From positions 4,305 to 68,304 of the forward strand of contig CAZSTB010000003.1 of NCBI GenBank assembly GCA_964609855.1: DNA of 64,000 bases, given 5' to 3'. Origin of the DNA: an uncultured Bdellovibrionales bacterium. Lineage in GTDB: Bacteria; Patescibacteriota; Minisyncoccia; Moranbacterales; GWC2-37-73. Below are positions 6,291-63,960 of the stretch, piece after piece (the stretch's first letter is position 1; every line of letters starts with the position of its first letter). Below the pieces are notes generated by a model. The model worked only from the letters and a program-made list of their open reading frames with translations. It was not told the origin of the DNA and made no database searches. The position numbers were made by a program, and so were the translations under genes.

Positions 6291-6413
6291 TTAATTTGAA
6301 ATTTGAAATTTGAAATTTGAAATCAATCCAAAACGATTAAATTAAAAATTTATCAAATAAAAAATTAAATAAAAATTAAAAATTTTAAAATAAAAATTCT
6401 CGCGCAGCGAGGT

Positions 6414-15612: not shown

Positions 15613-15668
15613 ATCTTTCGCTCGCTAAATTTAAAACTTAAAATTTCAAATTTGAAATTAATTTATGC

Positions 15669-21165: not shown

Positions 21166-21258
21166 TTAACATGTCATGCTGAATTCATTTCAGCATCTAT
21201 GATTGCTAAAAGCATTTCTAGATCCCGAAACAAGTTCAGGATGACATGTTGATAATTT

Positions 21259-21362
21259 AATATTTGTTACATGTTATATGCTACATGCCGCATGTTACAT
21301 GATTTCAGCAAATATTTGTTACATGTTATATGCTACATGCCGCATGTTACATGATTTCAGCA
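21259..21362. repeat. perfect 52-bp tandem duplication (2 units), each with three TACATG-containing motifs
   Basis: 21259-21310 is identical to 21311-21362. Confidence 0.9.
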
Positions 21363-21510
21363 TTGGCCACTGCTCTAGTGTTATTATAACACTCCTTACA
21401 TATCACTGCAATATCAATGGGTGTGGATAACTTTGACTAGCTTTTAGTTGTTAGCTTTCAGGAAAACAAAAACAGCCCGTGGGCTGTTTTTGGTGAATGG
21501 ATTTGGGTGT

Positions 21511-26907: not shown

Positions 26908-27165
26908 CTAATTAGGGCTCTCTGTTATTTTGCATGGTAGTTTCTTTGTCATTCCGAGCGAAGTGAATCGACCAAAGGGAGATGAGCGCAGTCGAGGAAT
27001 CTGAGTTAATATACTTACAAAATCTGGTATTAAATGCGGATCCCTGCGCCACAGCTAAAACCAAAGGCGGCATGCGGTCGGCTACATTCCTCCGCTACCG
27101 CGTCGTCATTTTGCTCGGGATGACAAAATAATAAAAGGTCGGTTAGTGTAGTGCCCTATTTAATT
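26908..27165. ncRNA. candidate structured ncRNA of unknown class (GC-rich, ORF-free, closed by 12-bp helix)
   Basis: GTCATTCCGAGC (26948-26959) pairs with GCTCGGGATGAC (27113-27124); outer complementarity 26908-26920 / 27153-27165; several internal complementary segments; strand unknown. Confidence 0.35.
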
Positions 27166-33925: not shown

Positions 33926-35128
33926 CTACTGCCTTATCAATGTGTTATACCTCTGGATGGTTTTATTGTAAAGCCCCACGATATCATTGAGTTTTTTTAC
34001 GTCTTTTTTATATTGCTCGAATAATTTATTATATTTTTCAACCAAGGCGTTATATTTTTCAAATTCTTGCCTTTTTTCATATTTATTCAGATCGTTTTTC
34101 CACTCAGTTAACTTTTCCTCGGCCGCAGCAACAATTTTCTTCTGTTCATTGATCATCGGCAATGTTTTCTCGAATGAAATTTTCAACTGATTTATTTCCG
34201 CGATTATCTTTTCAGTTTTTATGATGCCCAGATATTCCCTGCCTTCAGTTTTCTGCAAAATTACAACCTGACCCAACTGCCCGACAGCCGCCAAGTTCGC
34301 TTGATCCAAACTTAGTTCAGTCAATTTGGCGACATTTACAGTTTTATTGCTCGCAGAGTCGAAACTTGGAACAATCCCAATCTTATTTCCCTCCGCCGTG
34401 GTTTCGCTGTAGCAATAACCACTTCCATATGTTGAATTAGCTTTCGGACACTGAATTCCGATTGCCATATGATTATCATCCGGATATGTGAAGATTGCAG
34501 TTCCGTATCCCATAACCCTAAGCAAAGCAATTGCCAACAAACTCTTGTCGCTGCACACGCCCAACTGCTGAAAAAGAACTTCATAGGGATAACGCATCGT
34601 TTCATTGGAATTTTTAGCCAAAATATTTTCAGCTTTTGCATCGTCATACGGAATCGATTGCACGAATGCCATCGTCAAATCAACAAGCTCATCGTCAGTT
34701 AACTTTTGCTTAACGCCAAGCTGGCGAATTTTTTCCACCAGTTCAATAATCGTTTTATCCTCCTGATCGATCTTTAAAAAATTTCCATAATACTCCTCTT
34801 CCCAATTTTGTGGCAAAGTTCCCACATAGGAGAATGATTTAGGTTGATTTTTGTAAAATTCATTAACAGACTCATACAAATTCTCCGTAATTGAATATTT
34901 GACACCTTTATATTCCCATTGGTAAACGCGTTCCTTGGCGCCTTCTAATTGTGGGAAAGGCTTTTTAAAGATAATTTTCTCCGCCTCACCATCGGTAAAA
35001 TTTTCAATGACTGAAAAAACTTGCGATGAGGAAAGATTTCTTTTTTCAGCAATAAGCCAAAGTGCGCCTGCTATTAAAAGCAGCTCTAGGGAAATAATTA
35101 AAGTTTTTTTAAGCAAATTTTTCAGCAT
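33926..35128 (-). CDS. membrane-anchored protein with transglutaminase-like cysteine protease core and C-terminal coiled coil
   Basis: GVCSDKSLLAIALLRVMGY ... NHMAIGI ... (Cys/His/Asp arrangement of the transglutaminase-like fold); N-terminal TM. Confidence 0.4.
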   Translation of the reverse strand: MLKNLLKKTLIISLELLLIAGALWLIAEKRNLSSSQVFSVIENFTDGEAEKIIFKKPFPQLEGAKERVYQWEYKGVKYSITENLYESVNEFYKNQPKSFSYVGTLPQNWEEEYYGNFLKIDQEDKTIIELVEKIRQLGVKQKLTDDELVDLTMAFVQSIPYDDAKAENILAKNSNETMRYPYEVLFQQLGVCSDKSLLAIALLRVMGYGTAIFTYPDDNHMAIGIQCPKANSTYGSGYCYSETTAEGNKIGIVPSFDSASNKTVNVAKLTELSLDQANLAAVGQLGQVVILQKTEGREYLGIIKTEKIIAEINQLKISFEKTLPMINEQKKIVAAAEEKLTEWKNDLNKYEKRQEFEKYNALVEKYNKLFEQYKKDVKKLNDIVGLYNKTIQRYNTLIRQ

Positions 35129-35230
35129 ACAAGATAGTATTTTTTATTTTTCAAATGAGACCTCATGCACCTATGATTATACTACGCCCACCAATTTTTA
35201 GCACTAAATTTTAAAAATTGCAAAAGAAAA

Positions 35231-35267
35231 AAGGAGTATTCGCGGTTTACGAAAACTCCTTCTTTTG
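35231..35267. terminator. bidirectional intrinsic terminator (AAGGAGT...ACTCCTT flanked by A-run and T-run)
   Basis: stem 35231-35237 / 35255-35261 with an inner CGG/CCG extension; T-tract on the plus strand and U-tract on the minus transcript. Confidence 0.6.
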
Positions 35268-35375
35268 AATTGCTCTTTGTAAGAGCGGATACTCGCTTCC
35301 ATATCCTTTTTTAAAGATATGGATAGTTTATTGAATTGGATGAGGTCATCATACCAAAACAATTACTGTTAGCGA

Positions 35376-35609
35376 CTAGAGGTATGCACCCTTAACGGTT
35401 GAGCGCGGAAGTCCGGTGTTTTCAAGCTTTTCCGGATCCGAACTTGCAACCTGCGTCATGCTGAGCGGAGGTGCCGGTTGATCCTGACCATTTCTGCTCA
35501 GGCATTTTCCCTTTTCAAGTCCCGGGCATTTTCCATTGCTGCACTTTGTTTTGCAGCGTTCCTCTCCATAGCAGGATTTACAATCAAATTCCACAATATC
35601 TCTTTGCAT
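35376..35609 (-). CDS. small Cys-rich hypothetical protein (6 Cys in the first 36 aa)
   Basis: ATG preceded by SD AAAGGGGAT; GC-rich island; last gene of a 4-gene operon. Confidence 0.4.
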   Translation of the reverse strand: MQRDIVEFDCKSCYGEERCKTKCSNGKCPGLEKGKCLSRNGQDQPAPPLSMTQVASSDPEKLENTGLPRSTVKGAYL

Positions 35610-35627
35610 TTTTATCCCCTTTTTTTG

Positions 35628-35810
35628 CTATTGAACTCCCAGACCAAGATGTTTACGGATATTGTTTGCGTTGGTATTCAGCCAGCAAAAATCGTCCGCG
35701 CCCCTGCATCCGCTGAATAACCTTTCTATTCTCCGAAGCAATTTGCGTAGTTCGTGATCCGATTTTCCAGCCAAACTTACAATATTGCTTCTCGCCCTTT
35801 TCCTGATCAT
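35628..35810 (-). CDS. small basic hypothetical protein (~60 aa)
   Basis: ATG at 35808-35810 preceded by GGAGG with a 5-nt spacer; the ORF track begins at a TTG at 35822. Confidence 0.35.
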   Translation of the reverse strand: MIRKRARSNIVSLAGKSDHELRKLLRRIERLFSGCRGADDFCWLNTNANNIRKHLGLGVQ

Positions 35811-35830
35811 ATCCACCTCCAATTTTGAAT

Positions 35831-36097
35831 TTAGGCTGCCTCCCTTGAATTAAAATTTTCGCTCAACTGCTCAGGTGAAATCTTCTCCAACAACTCACGA
35901 GAAGGGTTCGCACTTTGCAGCATCCTTATTAGTGAATCATTGAGAAATACGTGTCCGCATCCGCAATCGAGTGTTTTTGTTATCAACTGCTCGGTGCGCA
36001 TGCGACTTTTGATATCTCCCGGGTGTGTCTTACCAAGTCGCTGAATCAACTGATGAAGCTTTCGTTTCAAAGCAACAGTTCTTTTCATATTCAGCAT
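35831..36097 (-). CDS. small hypothetical protein (88 aa), weak Spo0E-like helical resemblance
   Basis: ATG preceded by AAAGGGAGGAG; basic helical N-terminal half. Confidence 0.35.
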   Translation of the reverse strand: MLNMKRTVALKRKLHQLIQRLGKTHPGDIKSRMRTEQLITKTLDCGCGHVFLNDSLIRMLQSANPSRELLEKISPEQLSENFNSREAA

Positions 36098-36113
36098 GAC
36101 TCCTCCCTTTAGA

Positions 36114-36317
36114 TTATTTATTTTCCTGCATGCAGCGCAGCGCCTTAATCCTTGGATCCAGATATGTTTTCAAGATAAATGCATTTTGTTTCTCCACTTC
36201 TGACGACTCAGAAAATTCCATCACACTGACAGCATCGACGCGACATTTCTCCAGAACTTCAATGTCCTGCGTCTTCTCTGCAATCCGCTGAATCTCAAAC
36301 AGATCGATGTCTAGCAA
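36114..36317 (-). CDS. small acidic hypothetical protein (67 aa)
   Basis: TTG start preceded by a perfect SD AAGGAGGTG with a 7-nt spacer. Confidence 0.35.
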   Translation of the reverse strand: MLDIDLFEIQRIAEKTQDIEVLEKCRVDAVSVMEFSESSEVEKQNAFILKTYLDPRIKALRCMQENK

Positions 36318-36662
36318 ATCACACCTCCTTTTTAGTAAACCAAATTTTTAAAAAACTATCCTTATTATTATAAGCAAACAACTTGCAGCAAAATAAAAAA
36401 CCAGCTTTCGCTGGAATAATTTCAATACTACTTTTTGCTTAATTCTATGAAATATTACCCAACGAAAATTTGCCTCCGACGAGGAGAATAATGAGTCCAA
36501 ACAGGACAATCACAAATTTTTTTGTTGAGTTATTTTTCATATATCATCATTATAAACATTTTTCGCGGCCTGTCAATAACAATGAGCTTAGATAACATCT
36601 CGTATCTTGTATCGCGTATCTTGTATATCGTATTTTATACATTGCATTTATACACCATACAT

Positions 36663-36697
36663 AATACTAGATACTAGATACTAGATACTAGATACTT
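36663..36697. repeat. tandem heptamer repeat (TACTAGA)x4-5 downstream of paralog A
   Basis: atactagatactagatactagatactagatac. Confidence 0.85.
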
Positions 36698-36707
36698 TAT
36701 ACATGCA

Positions 36708-37835
36708 TCATTCCACACTTAATCCGCTCGGAGAAGCAGGAGCAACGACATCGAGAATGGAATCACTAGTAGTAATCACAACATCATCAATCTGCACAGG
36801 ATAACTGACATTCTCAGTGTACAAATGTGAACCCACATGATGATTATCCATTAATTCAACATAGTTCCAACCATTTTCAACACTTCCTCCTGACATGACA
36901 AATTCCATATTTGTCTTGTAGAACATGCGCACATCGTCCAAACTAACCTCTTGAATTCCATCTGCTGCGCCTGGTGCGGAATTCATTTTTACATGATAGG
37001 TATATTTATGCCATTCTCCATCCATCCTGATAGTGTCTACAACAGGATTACTGGAGGGCAGTGCATATGTATAACGATTATTTAAGAGGATATTCTGATA
37101 AGGATAATAACTGCTACTATTATACCAAGCATCCACGGTTTCATCATAAACTTCAGGAGTTCCATTTGAAGTTTGCGAACGGTTGTAATACTGCATAAAA
37201 TAAGGCCTGCTAGAATAAAAGCTTCCCATGTGTGGCAGCCACGCAGGGTGTGTAGGCCTAGCCTCAACCGAATGATCATCCGCCAAGGATGTTGAAACGG
37301 TCAACTCGCCATTAAACCTGGCGATATAAAAAGCCTTCGTTATACCGGAATAATTAATGTCAGACCCATCCCACCAATCCATATCACTTGGATATTTCAC
37401 CCACATCTCCACCCAAAGCTCAGGATATCCCGCTTCGCCGAAGTACATCGTAAGGGGACTGCCTCCAGCCCACCCAGTACTATATGTAGGATTACCCTTG
37501 GCTGATTCAAAATTGTAAGTCAAACCTCTTGAGCTTTCTCTACCTTGTCTCGCTCCAATAGTAGCCATTGGGCCTTGAGAAACTGCAAGAGTTGAAGGCG
37601 AAGTTCTGACCCATGAATTGGGATGCAACCACTGCCCATTCATCTTTTTGGGAGGATCCAGAGTTCTTGATGGATTGCCCGTCCAAGCATTAGGAAAACC
37701 ATTTGATATCCTAGGCGCAGACCAGTCAGCCGCATCTTCAAAGTTAGTCTCCCAAACAACAGCTGCATTTGCAAAATTTTGCAGCATGAAAAATATTGCA
37801 AGTAGGAAGAAAAATTTTAGAATTTGTTTTTGCAT
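36708..37835 (-). CDS. secreted beta-rich (jelly-roll/concanavalin-like?) protein, paralog A; C-terminus ...APASPSGLSVE
   Basis: signal peptide MQKQILKFFFLLAIFFMLQNFANA; shared motifs HVKMNSAPGAADG and LDDV; TGA stop directly after the conserved C-terminal motif. Confidence 0.6.
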   Translation of the reverse strand: MQKQILKFFFLLAIFFMLQNFANAAVVWETNFEDAADWSAPRISNGFPNAWTGNPSRTLDPPKKMNGQWLHPNSWVRTSPSTLAVSQGPMATIGARQGRESSRGLTYNFESAKGNPTYSTGWAGGSPLTMYFGEAGYPELWVEMWVKYPSDMDWWDGSDINYSGITKAFYIARFNGELTVSTSLADDHSVEARPTHPAWLPHMGSFYSSRPYFMQYYNRSQTSNGTPEVYDETVDAWYNSSSYYPYQNILLNNRYTYALPSSNPVVDTIRMDGEWHKYTYHVKMNSAPGAADGIQEVSLDDVRMFYKTNMEFVMSGGSVENGWNYVELMDNHHVGSHLYTENVSYPVQIDDVVITTSDSILDVVAPASPSGLSVE

Positions 37836-43552: not shown

Positions 43553-43675
43553 TCATATTTAATTTTCAATAATCAGTTTTCAATTTACAATGAATTCTCA
43601 ATTAAAAAATTATCAAACTAAAATTTTAATTGAAAATTGCAAATTTAATGAAAATTGTGAATTGAAAATTGAAAA

Positions 43676-45004
43676 TTATTTATCATCCCTCCTATTTAAA
43701 TATTTATCCAAGAGATAAATCGACAACGATAATATTATATAATAAACCACCACAAATAACACTGACACTTTTTCAATCTCCACACTTGCCCAAGAAAATC
43801 GTGACAAAAGGTGGATCAGTGAAATCTCATAGTGAAGCGGCAAATAAGTGAGCCACGCTAAAATCAGAGAAAGTGGAGAAAAAATAAATTCTGCCAGTGC
43901 CGTCAGAAATGCCAAGAACATTGAAAGTGGCACTATCGGCAAAATCAAAACGTTCGCCAGCAGCGAAACAAGCGAAGCGGTGTGAAAATTGTATGTGATT
44001 ATGGGCAGCACAAAAATCTGCGCACTGAGCGAAAGCGCGATTATTTCGGAAATTCCCAGCGCCTTATGTTTTTTGATGAAACTTTTCTCCCAAAATGGAG
44101 AAGTTGAAACTATTCCCAGTGTCGCCAGAAAAGAAAGCTGGAAACCGATATCATATCTGAGCAAAAGCGGATTCAAAAAGAGCATGACTGCTCCTGCAAA
44201 AATAATCGCGTTTTCCGAGGAGGCCAGTCGCCCATGCTTCATAGCCCAAAGCAAAATAAAGTACTCCGCTATGATGGTCACATTGTATCCGGAAACTGCC
44301 ACGATGTGGGTCATGCCGGTGCGCGAAAAATCATTTTGAATTTCTTTGGAAAAACCACTTGAACCACCAAGCAGAATTCCTCCCGCCAAGACGCTTTCAG
44401 GACTGGGGATGACGTCATTTATATTTTTCTCTAGCAAATTTTTCAATCCAAAGATCTGTGTCAAAAAAATATTCCCGCCGTACTCTCCGATTTTTCTGAA
44501 ATTTTTATCCTCGCAGGAATACAAAACTCCTTCTTTTGCCATATACATCATGTAATCAAAATCGGAATCTTCTTTATTTTCAATTCTCTTGGCCCGGCAT
44601 AAAACTTCAAGCAAATCTCCATATTGAAAAACCGGGTACATGGGAACCTGCAGAAGCATCACTATCTTTTCTTTTTCCAATTCAACAATGAGATTCCGCC
44701 CAAAAGAAGAATCTGAACTTTTTATCACCAACGCGCGCCCGCTAAAATTTACATTTTCAAAAACCGCATCATTGATTTCTTTCAAGCTGAAACTTGTTCG
44801 CCAAACACCGACAATAAAAAAGACAAAAATAAAAGCGACCAAAGTCGCATGTCCGTTCTTATAGAAAATTGTCATCAGCAACACTGAAAGAACGAGAATT
44901 GCCAATAAATAATTTCCACTTATTTCAAAAAATGACCGTAGAAAAACACCAAGAATAAATGCGAGCAATAAAAACAGCAAGATACGCGACTTTGATATAT
45001 CCAT
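43676..45004 (-). CDS. comEC: ComEC/Rec2 competence channel domain protein (DUF4131 + competence TM domain)
   Basis: polytopic membrane protein with the ComEC-like arrangement; sits directly upstream of the separate MBL-domain ORF. Confidence 0.65.
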   Translation of the reverse strand: MDISKSRILLFLLLAFILGVFLRSFFEISGNYLLAILVLSVLLMTIFYKNGHATLVAFIFVFFIVGVWRTSFSLKEINDAVFENVNFSGRALVIKSSDSSFGRNLIVELEKEKIVMLLQVPMYPVFQYGDLLEVLCRAKRIENKEDSDFDYMMYMAKEGVLYSCEDKNFRKIGEYGGNIFLTQIFGLKNLLEKNINDVIPSPESVLAGGILLGGSSGFSKEIQNDFSRTGMTHIVAVSGYNVTIIAEYFILLWAMKHGRLASSENAIIFAGAVMLFLNPLLLRYDIGFQLSFLATLGIVSTSPFWEKSFIKKHKALGISEIIALSLSAQIFVLPIITYNFHTASLVSLLANVLILPIVPLSMFLAFLTALAEFIFSPLSLILAWLTYLPLHYEISLIHLLSRFSWASVEIEKVSVLFVVVYYIILSLSIYLLDKYLNRRDDK

Positions 45005-48951: not shown

Positions 48952-49653
48952 TTAGTTATTCATTCTAATGCAAACGTTTGATATATATGGCTCCATGAAA
49001 AGCTTTATTTTTTCAAGATCCAAAGCCTGGTTTTTCGTGGTTGCTTTCAAATTATCATCCAAAATTCTCATCTCGCGGTATTCCTGCAAATAATAAGCAT
49101 TTGCCCCCTTTATCCACTTGGCGATTTCCAGAAAATCTTCTTCGCTATGAAGTCCTGGAACGACAGTGGTTCGAAACTCATATGGAATTCCGCTTTCCAT
49201 TATCATTCTAACACTTTTCCTAATCCCCGCCATGTCTGCAACAACACCAACTACCTTGCTGTAGTTTTTTTGACTGCTCTTTATATCCATCGCAATGTAA
49301 TCAACTAGTTTTTCTTTGATGATTTTTTCCAAGACCTTAGGCTGCGTTCCATTGGAGTCAAGCTTCACAGCATATCCCATGCCTTTGATTTTTTTGATAA
49401 ATTCAATGATATCAGGCTGAATCGTCGGCTCTCCGCCTGTAATACAGACACCTTCCAGTTTCCCTTTTCGCTTTTCCAATAGCTCAAAGAATTCTTTTTC
49501 CATTTCATTAAGCTCCGGAAACTGCTCCGGCAAAACCAATTCCGGATTATGACAAAAACTGCAACGAAAACTGCAACCCACAGTAAAAACCGTAGTGGCG
49601 ATTTTACCGGGAAAATCTATTAGGGTTAACTTTTGAATACCACCGATGCGCAT
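48952..49653 (-). CDS. nrdG: anaerobic ribonucleoside-triphosphate reductase activating protein (radical SAM)
   Basis: CSFRCSFCHNPE CxxxCxxC cluster motif and GGEPT. Confidence 0.8.
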   Translation of the reverse strand: MRIGGIQKLTLIDFPGKIATTVFTVGCSFRCSFCHNPELVLPEQFPELNEMEKEFFELLEKRKGKLEGVCITGGEPTIQPDIIEFIKKIKGMGYAVKLDSNGTQPKVLEKIIKEKLVDYIAMDIKSSQKNYSKVVGVVADMAGIRKSVRMIMESGIPYEFRTTVVPGLHSEEDFLEIAKWIKGANAYYLQEYREMRILDDNLKATTKNQALDLEKIKLFMEPYISNVCIRMNN

Positions 49654-49989
49654 ACGCGTAATTTTTAATTTTGAATTTTTAATTTTAAATGAATTTCCAA
49701 TGACAGAATTTTCAAAACCCGTTTACTATGTCATTCTGAATTTATTTCAGAATCCACCTTCTTCATTTCAGCAAATTTTCTCCCAGCAAAATATCCCTAA
49801 GTAAGTCCAGAATGACAATGAGTTATTTTTTAGCTCAAATAAAGTAATTATCAATGTAACACCTTTTTACGCAATTCTTCTCCGACAGGGAGAGAAAAAT
49901 GAATAAATCTTAAGATTACGTACCCAAAACTCTTGAAATAAATTTTACATGTAATGATTTTGTTTCCACATTTCTTTTTCCGCAAAAGA

Positions 49990-50290
49990 AACCTGGAGGA
50001 AAGAAAACTCTCGCACGGAGTTCGCACTGGCAAAATTGCTACGCTCGCTCGCTAAATTTCCTCGCGCAAAAAAGTCGCAGAAGGAATTTTGCTGAGAAAA
50101 TTTATAACACTCCCTCGCTGCAATTTTGAAACGCGCTCCTAGTGCGAATTTAAATACGGAAATACAAAATGCAAAACGTTATCATATTGGAAACTTGCCT
50201 CTCCGCCCATTGCGTTAGTGCGTTTCAAAATTCACGATTGCGAGCGTTAAAAAATTACTTTTGGAGCGTAGCGGAATAGTAATTTTAGTG
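49990..50290. ncRNA. candidate structured RNA / regulatory region within the 960-bp nrdG to nrdD-mini-gene spacer
   Basis: multiple 7-9 bp long-range complementary pairs (50022-50029/50141-50148; 50039-50047/50264-50272; 50127-50133/50220-50226); GC-richer; no convincing ORF. Confidence 0.3.
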
Positions 50291-50615
50291 AGCAAGAGTA
50301 AGAATTTTGTCAGCACAAGCTAGGGCGGGACTTTCTTTTGTTACTTTTCCTTTCTAGAAAGAAAAGTAAATTTAAATATACGTCAACAATAAGAGTACAA
50401 ACCAAATTTAATTCAGTAAATAAATCAGTGAATAAAATCCTGGATTCCGGGTCAAGCCCGGAATGACAATTCTGTAAAAAACTTTCTATCATTCCCAAGC
50501 TACTTTTAAAATCCTACACTCAGAGATCCTGAAACAAGTTCAGGATGACAGCTAGAATTGAGGGAATTCGAGGCAATCCATGAAAGATTGCCTCGATATA
50601 TTCCCAGATCTTTTT

Positions 50616-50879
50616 CTAAGCGCAAACGCAGCCTGATTCCACTACATATTCATTGCGGTCTGCAAATTCCGCCTGCTTACCTTTGTTCCATTGAGTCACG
50701 GGACGAATGTAGCCGACAACTCTTGAATAAACCTCAGTAGGTTGGAAATTTCTCAGCACGCTGTCAGCTTGGTGACAAGCTTTGCATTTGTTGTAAATCT
50801 CAGCTCCTACCTTGTACGGCATATATTCCTCATTGCTCTCGATTGTTTTCCCACAATCATGACATGTGTATTTTTCCAT
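50616..50879 (-). CDS. stand-alone NrdD C-terminal-like domain: Zn-ribbon plus glycyl-radical motif (RVVGYIRPV), 87 aa
   Basis: 27 of 30 residues identical to the NrdD C-terminus (EVYSRVVGYIRPV.QWNKGKQAEF.DR); about 80% DNA identity between 50651-50738 and 51024-51110; intact CxxC...CxxC and clean ATG start. Confidence 0.6.
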   Translation of the reverse strand: MEKYTCHDCGKTIESNEEYMPYKVGAEIYNKCKACHQADSVLRNFQPTEVYSRVVGYIRPVTQWNKGKQAEFADRNEYVVESGCVCA

Positions 50880-50969
50880 ATGTTTTTATTTTTAATGTTA
50901 AATTATTTTCAAACTCTTCAAGCAGAAACGTCTCCCTGCCTAAAAATTTAGTTTGTCTTTCGCGACTGA

Positions 50970-53231
50970 CTATTTTTTCTTCTTATCTACCGTTTCCACT
51001 TCGCATTTTCCGTTTTGAAATTCCTTGCGGTCTCCAAACTCAGCCTGCTTACCTTTATTCCACTGCTCCACTGGACGAATATAGCCAACCACGCGAGAAT
51101 AAACTTCAGTCTTTTGCTCTACCACACATTTTGGACAAATGTGCTGCTCACCTGGAATATAACCATGAACCGGACAAATGCTGAATGTTGGAGAAAGTGT
51201 GAAATACGGAAGTGCATAATTCTCAGCGATTTTTCTTACCAGATTCTTCACCATTTGAATGTCCCAAATTCTTTCCCCTAAGAATCCATGAAGAACAGTT
51301 CCTCCGGTATATTTTGTCTGAAGATTATCCTGCAAATCCAGAGCTTCAAAAATATCCTCCGTGAAATGAACTGGGAGTTGCGAAGAGTTTGTGTAATAAG
51401 GTTCTCCGCCATTTTCTTTGACTGCTTTGTCATTTGCGAAAATGATATCCGGATATTTAACTTTATCAAGTCTTGCTAAGCGATAAGCGGTTCCTTCTGC
51501 AGGAGTTGCCTCCAAGTTGTAAAGATTACCTGTTTCTTCTTGGTAACCTGTAATGCGCTCTCGCATATGCACCAAGATTTCTTCAGCCAAGGCTTGTCCC
51601 TCCGGACTCGTAACTTCCTTACCGATAAGATTCAATAATCCCTCATTCATTCCGACCAAACCGATTGTTGAAAAGTGATTTGCCCAATATTGTCCCCTGC
51701 GCATCTTAATCGCATCTAGATAATATTTTGTATATGGATATAATCCTTGCTCAGTAAGACCCTCAACAAGTTTTCGCTTAGTCTCCAAGCTTTCCTTTGC
51801 AAGATCAGTAAGTGCATCCAACTCTTTGAAGAATTCTTTCTTATTTTTTGCTCTGTATCCAAGTCTTGGAAGATTGATAGTTACAACTCCAACTGAACCA
51901 GTCAGTGGATTTGCTCCAAAAAGTCCTCCTCCGCGCTTATGAAGTTCGCGATTATCCAATCTTAGGCGGCAGCACATGGAACGAGCATCATCAGGATCCA
52001 TATCTGAATTAACGAAGTTTGCGAAATATGGAATACCATATTTAGCGGTCATTTCCCAGATAGGATCGAAGCGGTCATCCTCCCAATTAAAATTCTTGTC
52101 GATGTTATAGGTTGGAATCGGGAAAGTGAAAATTCTTCCGCTTGCATCTCCTTCAGTCATAACTTCGGCAAATGCACGGTTGATCATATTCATTTCTTCC
52201 TGAAATTCTCCATAAGTTTCCAATTGCGGAGCACCACCGATGATCACTGCTTCTTTTGCTAAATTCTTCGGAGCAGTAATATCCATCGTAATATTGGAAA
52301 ACGGAGTTTGAAATCCTACACGCGTAGAAACATTCATGTTAAATACGAAAGACTGAATTTCCTGCTTTACTTGTTGGAATGAAAGCTTATCGTAACGAAC
52401 GAATGGGGCAAGCAAAGTGTCAAAGTTTGAAAATGCTTGAGCGCCGGCAACTTCTCCCTGTAAAGTGTAAATGAAATTCACCATTTGTCCGAGAATACTT
52501 CCGAGATGCTTAGCTGGTCTGCAGGCTACCTTTCCTGGAACCCCAGTGAAACCTCTGCGAAGTAAGTCTTGCAAATCCCAACCACAGCAATAAGCAGCAA
52601 TAAGTTGCAAATCATGAATATGGAAGTCTCCACCTTCATGCGCAGCTCTGATTTCTTTAGTGTAAACCCGGTTCATCCAGTACTTACTGCTAACTATGGA
52701 AGCGATGTAATTATTAAGTCCTTGCAAGGAATATGCCATATTAGCATTCTCCTTAACTTTCCAATCTATCTCTTGAATATATTTATCTACAAGACTCACG
52801 GCCTCATCCAGGGATTGCTCAGTTTCTCTGATTTTGCGATGTTGTTCGCGGTAAAGAATATATGCCTTGGCTGTTTCCTCGAAATCTAAAATCATCAGCA
52901 CGCGCTCAACCAAATCTTGAAGTTGTTCGATTGTTGGGATATCTCCTTGCTTGTAATTTTTGTTCAAGATTTGAACAACCTTGTCGGAAACTTTAGCAGC
53001 TTCAACTTTTCCACCCTCTCCTGTAATCGCCAAAGCTTTACTCACTGCAATAGTAATTTTTTTAGGATCAAAGGGAACTACGCGTCCTGATCGTTTTACA
53101 AGTTTTTTCACCATGTTCTTAGTCTTTGCAGGTTTTGCTTTTACCAGAGAAACTTGAGACGCTATCTTTTTCACCGCCACAATCTTTTTCTCACCCTTTG
53201 TTGAATTTTTCTTTGTTTTTGCCATATCCAT
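50970..53231 (-). CDS. nrdD: anaerobic ribonucleoside-triphosphate reductase (class III)
   Basis: N-terminal ATP-cone, C-terminal Zn site CPVHGY...CPKC, glycyl radical motif RVVGYIRPV; 753 aa. Confidence 0.9.
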   Translation of the reverse strand: MDMAKTKKNSTKGEKKIVAVKKIASQVSLVKAKPAKTKNMVKKLVKRSGRVVPFDPKKITIAVSKALAITGEGGKVEAAKVSDKVVQILNKNYKQGDIPTIEQLQDLVERVLMILDFEETAKAYILYREQHRKIRETEQSLDEAVSLVDKYIQEIDWKVKENANMAYSLQGLNNYIASIVSSKYWMNRVYTKEIRAAHEGGDFHIHDLQLIAAYCCGWDLQDLLRRGFTGVPGKVACRPAKHLGSILGQMVNFIYTLQGEVAGAQAFSNFDTLLAPFVRYDKLSFQQVKQEIQSFVFNMNVSTRVGFQTPFSNITMDITAPKNLAKEAVIIGGAPQLETYGEFQEEMNMINRAFAEVMTEGDASGRIFTFPIPTYNIDKNFNWEDDRFDPIWEMTAKYGIPYFANFVNSDMDPDDARSMCCRLRLDNRELHKRGGGLFGANPLTGSVGVVTINLPRLGYRAKNKKEFFKELDALTDLAKESLETKRKLVEGLTEQGLYPYTKYYLDAIKMRRGQYWANHFSTIGLVGMNEGLLNLIGKEVTSPEGQALAEEILVHMRERITGYQEETGNLYNLEATPAEGTAYRLARLDKVKYPDIIFANDKAVKENGGEPYYTNSSQLPVHFTEDIFEALDLQDNLQTKYTGGTVLHGFLGERIWDIQMVKNLVRKIAENYALPYFTLSPTFSICPVHGYIPGEQHICPKCVVEQKTEVYSRVVGYIRPVEQWNKGKQAEFGDRKEFQNGKCEVETVDKKKK

Positions 53232-53855: not shown

Positions 53856-54116
53856 ATTCCAAGCTTGACAATTTAAGGTTTTTGATACCTATTATTGTTG
53901 CTTTTTTATCTTAAACCACAACATATTGTGTACCGTTAGTCCATTATACCACAAGTCAAATATCTGCCAAGCCAGCTATTCCAAGCCATTTTTTGGAGTT
54001 ATGCACAGATAAATAAAACATTTAACATACAAACATCTAACCATCTAAACATTTAACATACATGATAATAACAAATGTATCATTGAATCATATGGGACAT
54101 TAAAATATCAATAAAC

Positions 54117-63832: not shown

Positions 63833-63960
63833 AAATTTTTAATTTAATTTTAATTTGAAACAAACTCTTAATTCCAAGTAATTTAAATAAATTTAAATTT
63901 GATAACAATTTTAAATTTTAAAATTTCAAATTTTCCTATCATATGAAACTAATAATTGCC

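Follow-up and report, generated by a model that had tools for sequence, protein, structure and literature searches.

Gene setting of the nrd locus

The window, meaning the whole 64-kb stretch of DNA analyzed here, comes from a Moranbacteria-type (Patescibacteria) genome, and the nearest species-representative genomes by NrdG comparison are Candidatus Moranbacteria assemblies, with at most 68% identity. The ORF list and Pfam place four genes of a class III RNR locus on its minus strand, namely nrdR (53754-53302), nrdD (53231-50970), mini-nrdD (50879-50616), and nrdG (49653-48952). The nrdR-nrdD-mini-nrdG order is kept in about 20 loci. The mini-nrdD gene encodes an 87-aa stand-alone glycyl-radical protein, which is the sole carrier of the radical domain in some relatives. 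A sequence search of solved structures with mini-NrdD gave no significant match, owing to the shortness of the query.

Between mini-nrdD and nrdG lies a spacer of 962 bp (50615-49654), which contains the following features:

50560-50606, minus strand: conserved 47-nt hairpin directly after the mini-nrdD stop codon, defined by covariation and a covariance model
49860-50559, no strand assigned: strain-specific non-coding segment of about 700 bp, defined by sister-strain alignment
50525-50550, minus strand: REP-like hairpin unit 1, TGTCATCCTGAACTTGTTTCAGGATC, with a TGTC head, identified from copies elsewhere
50442-50468, minus strand: REP-like hairpin unit 2, TGTCATTCCGGGCTTGACCCGGAATCC, with a TGTC head, belonging to direct-repeat families D1 and D10
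49934-50415, no strand assigned: imperfect foldback palindrome of 482 bp, an orphan, made of nested inverted repeats I1-I3, I12, and I20
49799-49818, minus strand: degenerate TGTC-head hairpin copy, TTGTCATTCTGGACTTACTT, belonging to D1 and I5
49729-49755, plus strand: REP-like hairpin unit 4, TGTCATTCTGAATTTATTTCAGAATCC, with a TGTC head in the opposite orientation, belonging to inverted repeat I5
49654-49859, minus strand: 206-bp segment upstream of nrdG, common to the sister strain (98.6% identity to contigs L091 and L083)
49659-49716, minus strand: TGTCATTGGAAATTCA motif and, after it, an AATTTTN heptamer tract, just ahead of the nrdG start codon, identified from direct repeat D2 and from relatives

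The first-pass annotation had described this spacer as an ORF-poor gap of about 1 kb with a GC-richer core, and both descriptions hold, as the longest ORF reaches at most 62 aa and the G+C fraction of the core is 0.38-0.42 vs. 0.31-0.33 in the flanks. Its remark that genes elsewhere in the window are tightly spaced is roughly true only, since elsewhere, too, the window has stretches of 0.5-1.6 kb in which no ORF reaches 100 aa, and several of these contain small ORFs. The long-range complementary segments that it placed in the core resolve into the single 482-bp palindrome with its nested inverted repeats. Of four proposed GAATGACA-type hairpins, the three that correspond to units 1, 2, and 4 have stems of 8-9 bp and a TGTC head, whereas the fourth, at 49698-49712, is weak as a stem and fits a TGTCATTGG motif better. 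The window has 11 copies of GRATGACA, vs. 4.65 ± 2.1 in shuffled sequence, and four of these 11 fall in the spacer, which makes up 1.5% of the window.

Control by NrdR from within the spacer had also been suggested. NrdR boxes were sought as the 16-bp palindrome acaCwAtATaTwGtgt, which usually occurs as a tandem pair, and none is present in 49654-50615 at up to three mismatches. The sole good NrdR box in the window, ACACAATATGTTGTGG at 53916-53931, lies upstream of nrdR, just downstream of the TGTGGTATAAT extended -10 element, at the site where control of the operon is expected. Separately, a replication origin at the spacer was considered and rejected because GC skew is monotonic across the window.

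A conserved hairpin follows mini-nrdD

An 11-bp perfect hairpin had been noticed after the mini-gene stop codon. It exists, with stem strands at 50568-50578 and 50586-50596 (inverted repeat I21), 5 nt away from where it was first placed, and it belongs to the conserved 47-nt element. A hairpin is found at this position in about 17 Moranbacteria-type nrd loci, and an alignment of 14 loci yields the consensus AAAGAU-N-RGGCRAY-(variable upper stem and loop)-RUYGCCY-AAUU. In the alignment of the 14 loci, 94.9% of the cells are paired, vs. 80.3% in shuffled alignments (none of 500 reached the observed value) and 40-50% when the pairing partners are slid. Compensatory changes occur in 8 of the 13 pairs. 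The G-U pairs of the hairpin fall on the sense strand, and column pair 23-58 is G-U in 8 of the 14 sequences. The lower stem, GGC.AU/AU.GCC, and the upstream AGAU are invariant across genera, which suggests recognition by a specific factor.

The covariance model built from this alignment (R1) gives one match per nrd locus and a single match in the 64-kb window, at the hairpin itself (39.1 bits, E = 6e-5). On loci outside its training set, it scores 53 bits at L003, which has no mini gene, and 52.6 bits at L103. The sequence pattern of the hairpin occurs in 16 of the 212 loci collected, and each of these 16 is an nrd locus.

Compact relatives have only 12-25 nt between the end of the hairpin and the ATG start codon of nrdG. 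Transcription of nrdG would thus read through the hairpin in these organisms, which points to a role at the level of the transcript. The hairpin is therefore most likely a transcript-level element acting by attenuation, partial termination, or 3′ stabilization to set the dosage of nrdG. The 3′ tail of the hairpin is AAUUCCCU in the window and GAAUUUUU, AAAUUUUC, or UAAUUUUUU in relatives; the window copy has no U-run and is not called by a consensus terminator scan. Intercistronic hairpins and partial terminators, such as the malE-malF REP stabilizers and the attenuators that adjust subunit ratios, resemble it in placing a stable sense-strand stem-loop between two cistrons whose products are needed unequally, and several relatives share the A-rich 5′ and U-rich 3′ flanks of that class. 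A plain terminator needs neither an invariant lower stem nor AGAU, both of which are present in the nrd hairpin.

The segment next to nrdG

At the other end of the spacer, about 60 nt upstream of nrdG recur at 81-89% identity upstream of nrdG in three further loci (L005, L085, and L103). Together with the conserved hairpin, this conservation indicates that parts of the spacer are probably regulatory, and the 206-bp segment probably holds the nrdG promoter or leader. Sigma-70-like matches on the minus strand at 49854-49825 and 49818-49790 are weak and no more frequent than in shuffled sequence.

A strain-specific segment lies between the two

Logan contigs from other samples (L091, L090, L092, and L083) represent a sister strain, with a single amino acid difference in mini-NrdD and 99% identity in NrdG. 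The sister strain aligns to the window down to about position 50558 (95% identity) and resumes from 49859 (98.6% identity). Between these positions there is no alignment, and the junctions are sharp. At the same site, the sister strain carries 525 bp of unrelated DNA. An orphan ORF of 114 aa on the opposite strand of this segment forms a singleton cluster, has no Pfam match, and has no relative in viral contigs. Since unrelated content stands between matching flanks, 49860-50559 is specific to this strain and occupies a site of content turnover.

More distant relatives agree. In 20 of them, mini-nrdD and nrdG are 43-382 bp apart (161-228 bp in the closest, at 77-78% NrdG identity), compared with 791 bp for the sister strain and 962 bp for the window. 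Neither the sister strain nor any of these 20 relatives with the same gene order has the core 49860-50559, and blastn and nhmmer found no match to it elsewhere in the window or in the 1.5 Mb of loci collected from relatives and metagenomes. Comparison with relatives, which the first-pass annotation had called for, thus divided the spacer: the small hairpin at 50560-50606 is conserved and covaries, whereas the 0.7-kb core is not conserved.

Among other readings, the annotation had suggested a large RNA with a defined structure (a riboswitch, or something like RNase P RNA or tmRNA), and had named lack of conservation in relatives, together with lack of a transcript, as what would speak against it; the core does lack conservation. 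The absence of the core from the sister strain and the 20 relatives leaves a large conserved RNA unsupported. Rfam 15 has no match in the whole 64-kb window at the gathering score, and a search of 49500-51000 at E ≤ 10 returned nothing credible, the best match scoring 17.6 bits against a gathering score of 140. ARAGORN found no tRNA or tmRNA gene in the window, and the mismatches between the palindrome arms show no significant G-U bias. The large non-coding RNAs and introns of Rfam (RNase P, tmRNA, OLE, GOLLD, ROOL, HEARO, and group I and II introns) resemble the spacer in their size range and in lying in a gene-poor gap, but the spacer matches no covariance model at its gathering score and its element is not conserved. 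The nrdD gene of phage T4 carries a group I intron.

Two readings of the junctions were rejected by eye: an integron attC site, as there is neither a GTTRRRY pair nor an integrase, and an IS200/IS605 target site, as there is no TnpA.

Hairpins with a TGTC head resemble REP elements

Two TGTC-head hairpins, units 1 and 2, lie within the strain-specific segment, and each is followed by AGGATTTTA. Unit 4, which is also present in the sister strain, forms a REPIN-like inverted doublet with the degenerate copy at 49799-49818. All three units have copies elsewhere. Unit 1 recurs in the window at 21220-21246 and again in L007, while copies of unit 2 (93-100% identical) occur in metagenome loci L095, L172, and L136, and copies of unit 4 (100% identical) in L149 and L179. 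With two degenerate positions allowed, the 26-mer of unit 1, TGTYATCCTGAACTTGTTTCRGGATC, is found in at least 120 metagenome stretches and 12 IMG/VR contigs, and the metagenome contigs range from 23% to 71% G+C among the matches listed.

The association of head and hairpin is general in the sequences collected. In the metagenome loci and the window, 248 of 744 TGTCAT sites have a hairpin following them, vs. 1-3% for control hexamers. Across the family, neither the TGTC head nor the closing A-U pairs vary, and the inner stem positions covary: TGTC is joined to AT[YG]C... stems, with compensatory variants such as ATCCTGAA/TTCAGGAT, ATGCTGAA/TTCAGCAT, and ATTCCGGA/TCCGGAAT. Conservation ends at the edges of the hairpin. 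Most copies (116 of 134) lie outside long ORFs, with no preferred orientation relative to neighboring genes. Inverted doublets about 25 nt apart are common, with examples in L093, L105, L108, L155, and L166 and in the window at 21173-21246 and 49729-49818.

Repetitive extragenic palindromes (REPs) and their inverted doublets (REPINs) owe their mobility to Y1 transposases of the RAYT type in, among others, Pseudomonas and E. coli. Judged from sequence, the behavior of the TGTC-head hairpins matches that of REP and REPIN elements: both consist of hairpins of about 26 nt between genes, in which a short single-stranded head is conserved and the stems covary, and a genome has several copies that point either way and frequently pair up as inverted doublets. 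They differ in the head, which is TGTC here and GTAG-like in classical REPs, and in distribution, as classical REPs are species-specific, whereas here an identical 26-mer occurs in at least 132 contigs of 23-71% G+C, predicted viral contigs included. Literature searches turned up nothing relevant on the hairpin sequence, on REP elements of the candidate phyla radiation, or on an NrdD 'spare part'.

The 482-bp foldback

The remainder of the strain-specific segment is dominated by the palindrome, whose arms (49934-50137 and 50217-50415) flank an apex at 50138-50216. The arms are 73% complementary, with matches at 133 of 183 aligned positions. Their local alignment scores 81, vs. 28 ± 4.4 for dinucleotide shuffles, none of 500 of which reached 81 (z about 12). 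Each arm contains its own local hairpin, at 49965-49997 and 50341-50369 (inverted repeats I12 and I20), and these stand at equivalent positions although the arms have diverged there. Hairpins kept in both arms could reflect selection for structure.

The arms differ from each other by 27%, vs. only 1.4-5% between the flanks of the two strains. The palindrome would therefore have been old and imperfect on arrival rather than made in place.

Interpretation of the spacer

The spacer is composed of three layers: the nrd hairpin, the 206 bp next to nrdG, and about 700 bp of dispensable DNA between them. The reading that we favor, and regard as probable, is that most of the spacer is dispensable repeat or foldback DNA at a permissive intergenic site between the conserved hairpin and the nrdG control region, not a large conserved RNA. 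The first layer is a constant element of nrdR-nrdD-(mini)-nrdG operons of the Moranbacteria type, forms in the sense-strand RNA, and would set the output of nrdG (the activase) relative to that of nrdD. The second, with its conserved motif and heptamer tract, would serve as the nrdG promoter or leader. The third, made up of the two TGTC-head REP-like hairpins and the 482-bp foldback, would be selfish or repeat-derived filler that is tolerated at this site, and the palindrome, already old, may have come by insertion or allelic replacement. If transcribed, the foldback would form a long imperfect duplex, and nothing indicates selection for such a duplex.

A more active origin, in which the foldback is one copy of a working non-autonomous mobile element of the MITE or large-REPIN type, with other copies elsewhere in the genome or community, is unlikely but the best placed of the alternatives. 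Inverted repeats over the whole length, as in MITEs and foldback elements, are found in the 482-bp palindrome, and the strains differ at sharp junctions. The divergence of the arms relative to the flanks implies that the palindrome existed elsewhere beforehand. It adjoins REP-like hairpins that also occur as inverted doublets, and a 7-nt inverted repeat (CAATTCT...AGAATTG) stands near both ends of the strain-specific segment. However, no target-site duplication or other direct repeat is present at the junctions defined by the sister strain (AATTCCCT|CAATTC... and ...AAAGGTG|TTACATTG), and the ORF list of the window has no transposase near the segment.

Further copies of the palindrome were also sought. 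Word-7 blastn and nhmmer, the latter with the single sequence and with a two-arm profile, gave no significant match in the masked window or the 212 loci (1.5 Mb), with a best E of 0.066, and blastn of phage and plasmid records returned neither the palindrome nor any other DNA like the spacer. The exact pattern AATTTTGAAACGC-N70-100-GCGTTTCAAAATT had no match in JGI metagenomes or IMG/VR, nor did two 20-23-mers of the palindrome in IMG/VR; these scans of metagenomes and IMG/VR were for exact patterns, and the search of the organism's own genome covered 64 kb. Foldback MITEs and the ERIC/IRU, Correia, and RUP families share with the foldback a non-coding, imperfect palindrome that spans the whole element, lies between operon genes, and varies in presence by strain. 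Such families are recognized by their high copy number in a genome and usually also by target-site duplications, whereas here there is one copy and no duplication was found. The foldback also differs from a REPIN, as it has no TGTC heads and is about five times longer. We infer that the palindrome may have been mobile, with neither a target-site duplication nor a second copy found.

A further alternative is a functional long-hairpin RNA: the foldback, specific to this strain, would be transcribed on the minus strand as part of the operon and might serve as a leader processed by RNase III that uncouples or tunes nrdG, or as a precursor of small RNAs. The predicted fold of 49934-50415 is rod-like, with -142.9 kcal/mol and z = -5.9 as minus-strand RNA, vs. 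z = -3.05 as DNA, and the spacer as a whole has a far lower folding energy than shuffled sequence on either strand (z = -7.15 on the minus strand and -6.62 on the plus strand). The local hairpins kept in both arms, the position inside the operon, and a slight excess of arm mismatches that are G-U-compatible on the minus strand (14, vs. 8 on the plus strand) are also in keeping with this. That excess is not significant, however, and the arms are further separated by 28 transversions and a dozen indels, so that the mismatches give no sign of selection on pairing at the RNA level. The difference in folding energy between the strands of the spacer equals that between their shuffles, and the lower energy of the minus strand thus reflects composition. 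Given also that the foldback is absent from the sister strain and all relatives and has no Rfam match, we consider a functional RNA of this kind improbable.

An assembly artefact, mis-join, or chimera at the center of the spacer is very improbable. Two Logan contigs built independently from the same read sets, 100% identical to the window, end at 49992 and 50522, so that 49993-50521 rests on the window's own assembly only. Yet a 73%-identical palindrome is not a plausible assembler product, and the outer left arm at 49934-49964, covered by Logan contig L001, pairs with 50385-50415 in the part without independent support (I3). At their other ends, these short Logan contigs likewise stop at unremarkable places.

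A decayed protein gene (a homing endonuclease, a transposase, or a small accessory gene like the sister-strain ORF), which had been offered as a further explanation and would suit the gene-like length of the spacer and the ORF at the same site in the sister strain, is largely refuted and equally remote, as six-frame translation of 49860-50440 matched nothing at E ≤ 10 among 5.8 billion proteins, tblastn of the 114-aa ORF found nothing in the spacer, and the palindromic organization is unlike that of a decayed ORF.

Implications

Tolerated repeat and foldback DNA between a conserved hairpin and the control region of nrdG thus remains the preferred reading, and the spacer core would be a further example of palindromic repeat DNA in a permissive intergenic site. 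A bolder combination of proposals appears doubtful when taken jointly: that the foldback represents an undescribed class of long foldback elements in Patescibacteria (candidate phyla radiation), mobile or RNA-producing, of which this would be the first copy sampled, that the TGTC-head hairpins are a REP-like family that crosses phyla and is moved by an unknown enzyme, and that 50560-50606 is a new cis-regulatory RNA for the class III RNR activase. A phylum-crossing family is considered because the identical 26-mer occurs in viral contigs as well as in contigs of such different G+C content.

The locus also carries a caution for the annotation of non-coding DNA. A hairpin-dense gap that folds at z of about -7 relative to shuffled sequence is no evidence of an RNA gene, and comparison with one sister strain showed most of this gap to be dispensable. 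Finding an identical 26-nt TGTC-head sequence on metagenomic contigs that are otherwise very different prompts the question of what spreads it or keeps it conserved. The nrd hairpin, for its part, is a candidate for setting activase dosage in a group of organisms from which very few regulatory RNAs are known.

A predicted split class III RNR in some loci and a likely operon promoter in the window

Directly 3′ of full-length nrdD lies a small gene encoding a mini-NrdD, whose 87 residues comprise a stand-alone Zn-ribbon and the glycyl-radical motif EVYSRVVGYIRPV. This gene is kept in about 20 loci, and at E ≤ 1e-10 its product has 576 homologs. In five genome loci (L004, L005, L010, L013, and L017), the large NrdD open reading frame (ORF) ends just past CPKC and its RVVGY motif is lost or decayed, as in L005, where the protein ends in '...TVYLKVVMAD*'. 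The large NrdD match in the metagenome locus L103 likewise stops near residue 714. As predicted from these sequences, the radical domain of all six loci is on the mini protein only, forming a split class III RNR. In the other loci, the window included, the radical domain is present in two copies, one in the large NrdD and one in mini-NrdD. The mini-NrdD resembles GrcA as a 'spare part', here for NrdD; a literature search found no paper on a GrcA-like 'spare part' for NrdD. Upstream of nrdR lies a likely promoter of the operon with an NrdR operator, in which an extended -10 element is followed by an NrdR box, with a second, weaker NrdR box approximately 31 nt downstream of the first.

Features of the nrd operon in the window
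50616-50879, - strand: mini-NrdD gene, 87 aa
53885-53960: predicted operon promoter and NrdR operator, including the extended -10 TGTGGTATAAT
53916-53931: NrdR box ACACAATATGTTGTGG

The spacer and other intergenic regions

In the sister strain (L091 593-1117; also L090, L092, and L083), an unrelated 525-bp segment sits at exactly the junctions that bound the strain-specific spacer segment of the window (~50558 and 49859). Its opposite strand encodes an orphan ORF of 114 aa, which is a singleton cluster without a Pfam match; a search of viral contigs found no relatives. Tracts of the heptamer AATTTTN are found between genes at several places in the window (6291-6399, 15618-15661, 43560-43678, 49659-49692, and 63834-63931) and upstream of nrdG in relatives, and could serve as a promoter UP-element or protein-binding array. 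Elsewhere, a 1.6-kb stretch of the window (35128-36708) has no ORF of at least 100 aa, although its - strand holds a series of shorter ones (52-88 aa); the Rfam search of the window gave no match there.

TGTC-head hairpins

A 26-nt REP-like hairpin with a TGTC head, TGTCATCCTGAACTTGTTTCAGGATC, occurs twice in the window and in loci L093-L224. Identical copies lie in at least 120 contigs from metagenomes, with G+C contents of 23-71%, and the hairpin is also found in 12 IMG/VR contigs. Sequence conservation stops at the hairpin edges, and orientation is random with respect to genes. Such breadth of occurrence is unusually wide for a REP-like sequence. A longer intergenic element shares its TGTCATYC ends with the small hairpins.

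TGTC-head hairpins and neighboring or similar elements
Window 21220-21246 and 50525-50550: 26-nt hairpin TGTCATCCTGAACTTGTTTCAGGATC
Window 21173-21246: two TGTC-head hairpins, TGTCATGCTGAATTCATTTCAGCATC ... GATCCCGAAACAAGTTCAGGATGACA, arranged as an inverted, REPIN-like doublet
Window 21260-21370: two tandem copies of a ~61-bp unit, directly after this doublet
Window 26945-27127: 183-bp intergenic element with TGTCATYC ends, bounded by 22-nt inverted repeats TTTGTCATTCCGAGCGAAGTGA ... TCATTTTGCTCGGGATGACAAA
L103 2275-2360: TGTC-head hairpins forming a REPIN-like doublet in the gap that separates truncated nrdD from the mini gene

Since the L103 doublet likewise lies inside an nrd locus, nrd intergenic regions repeatedly attract TGTC-head elements.
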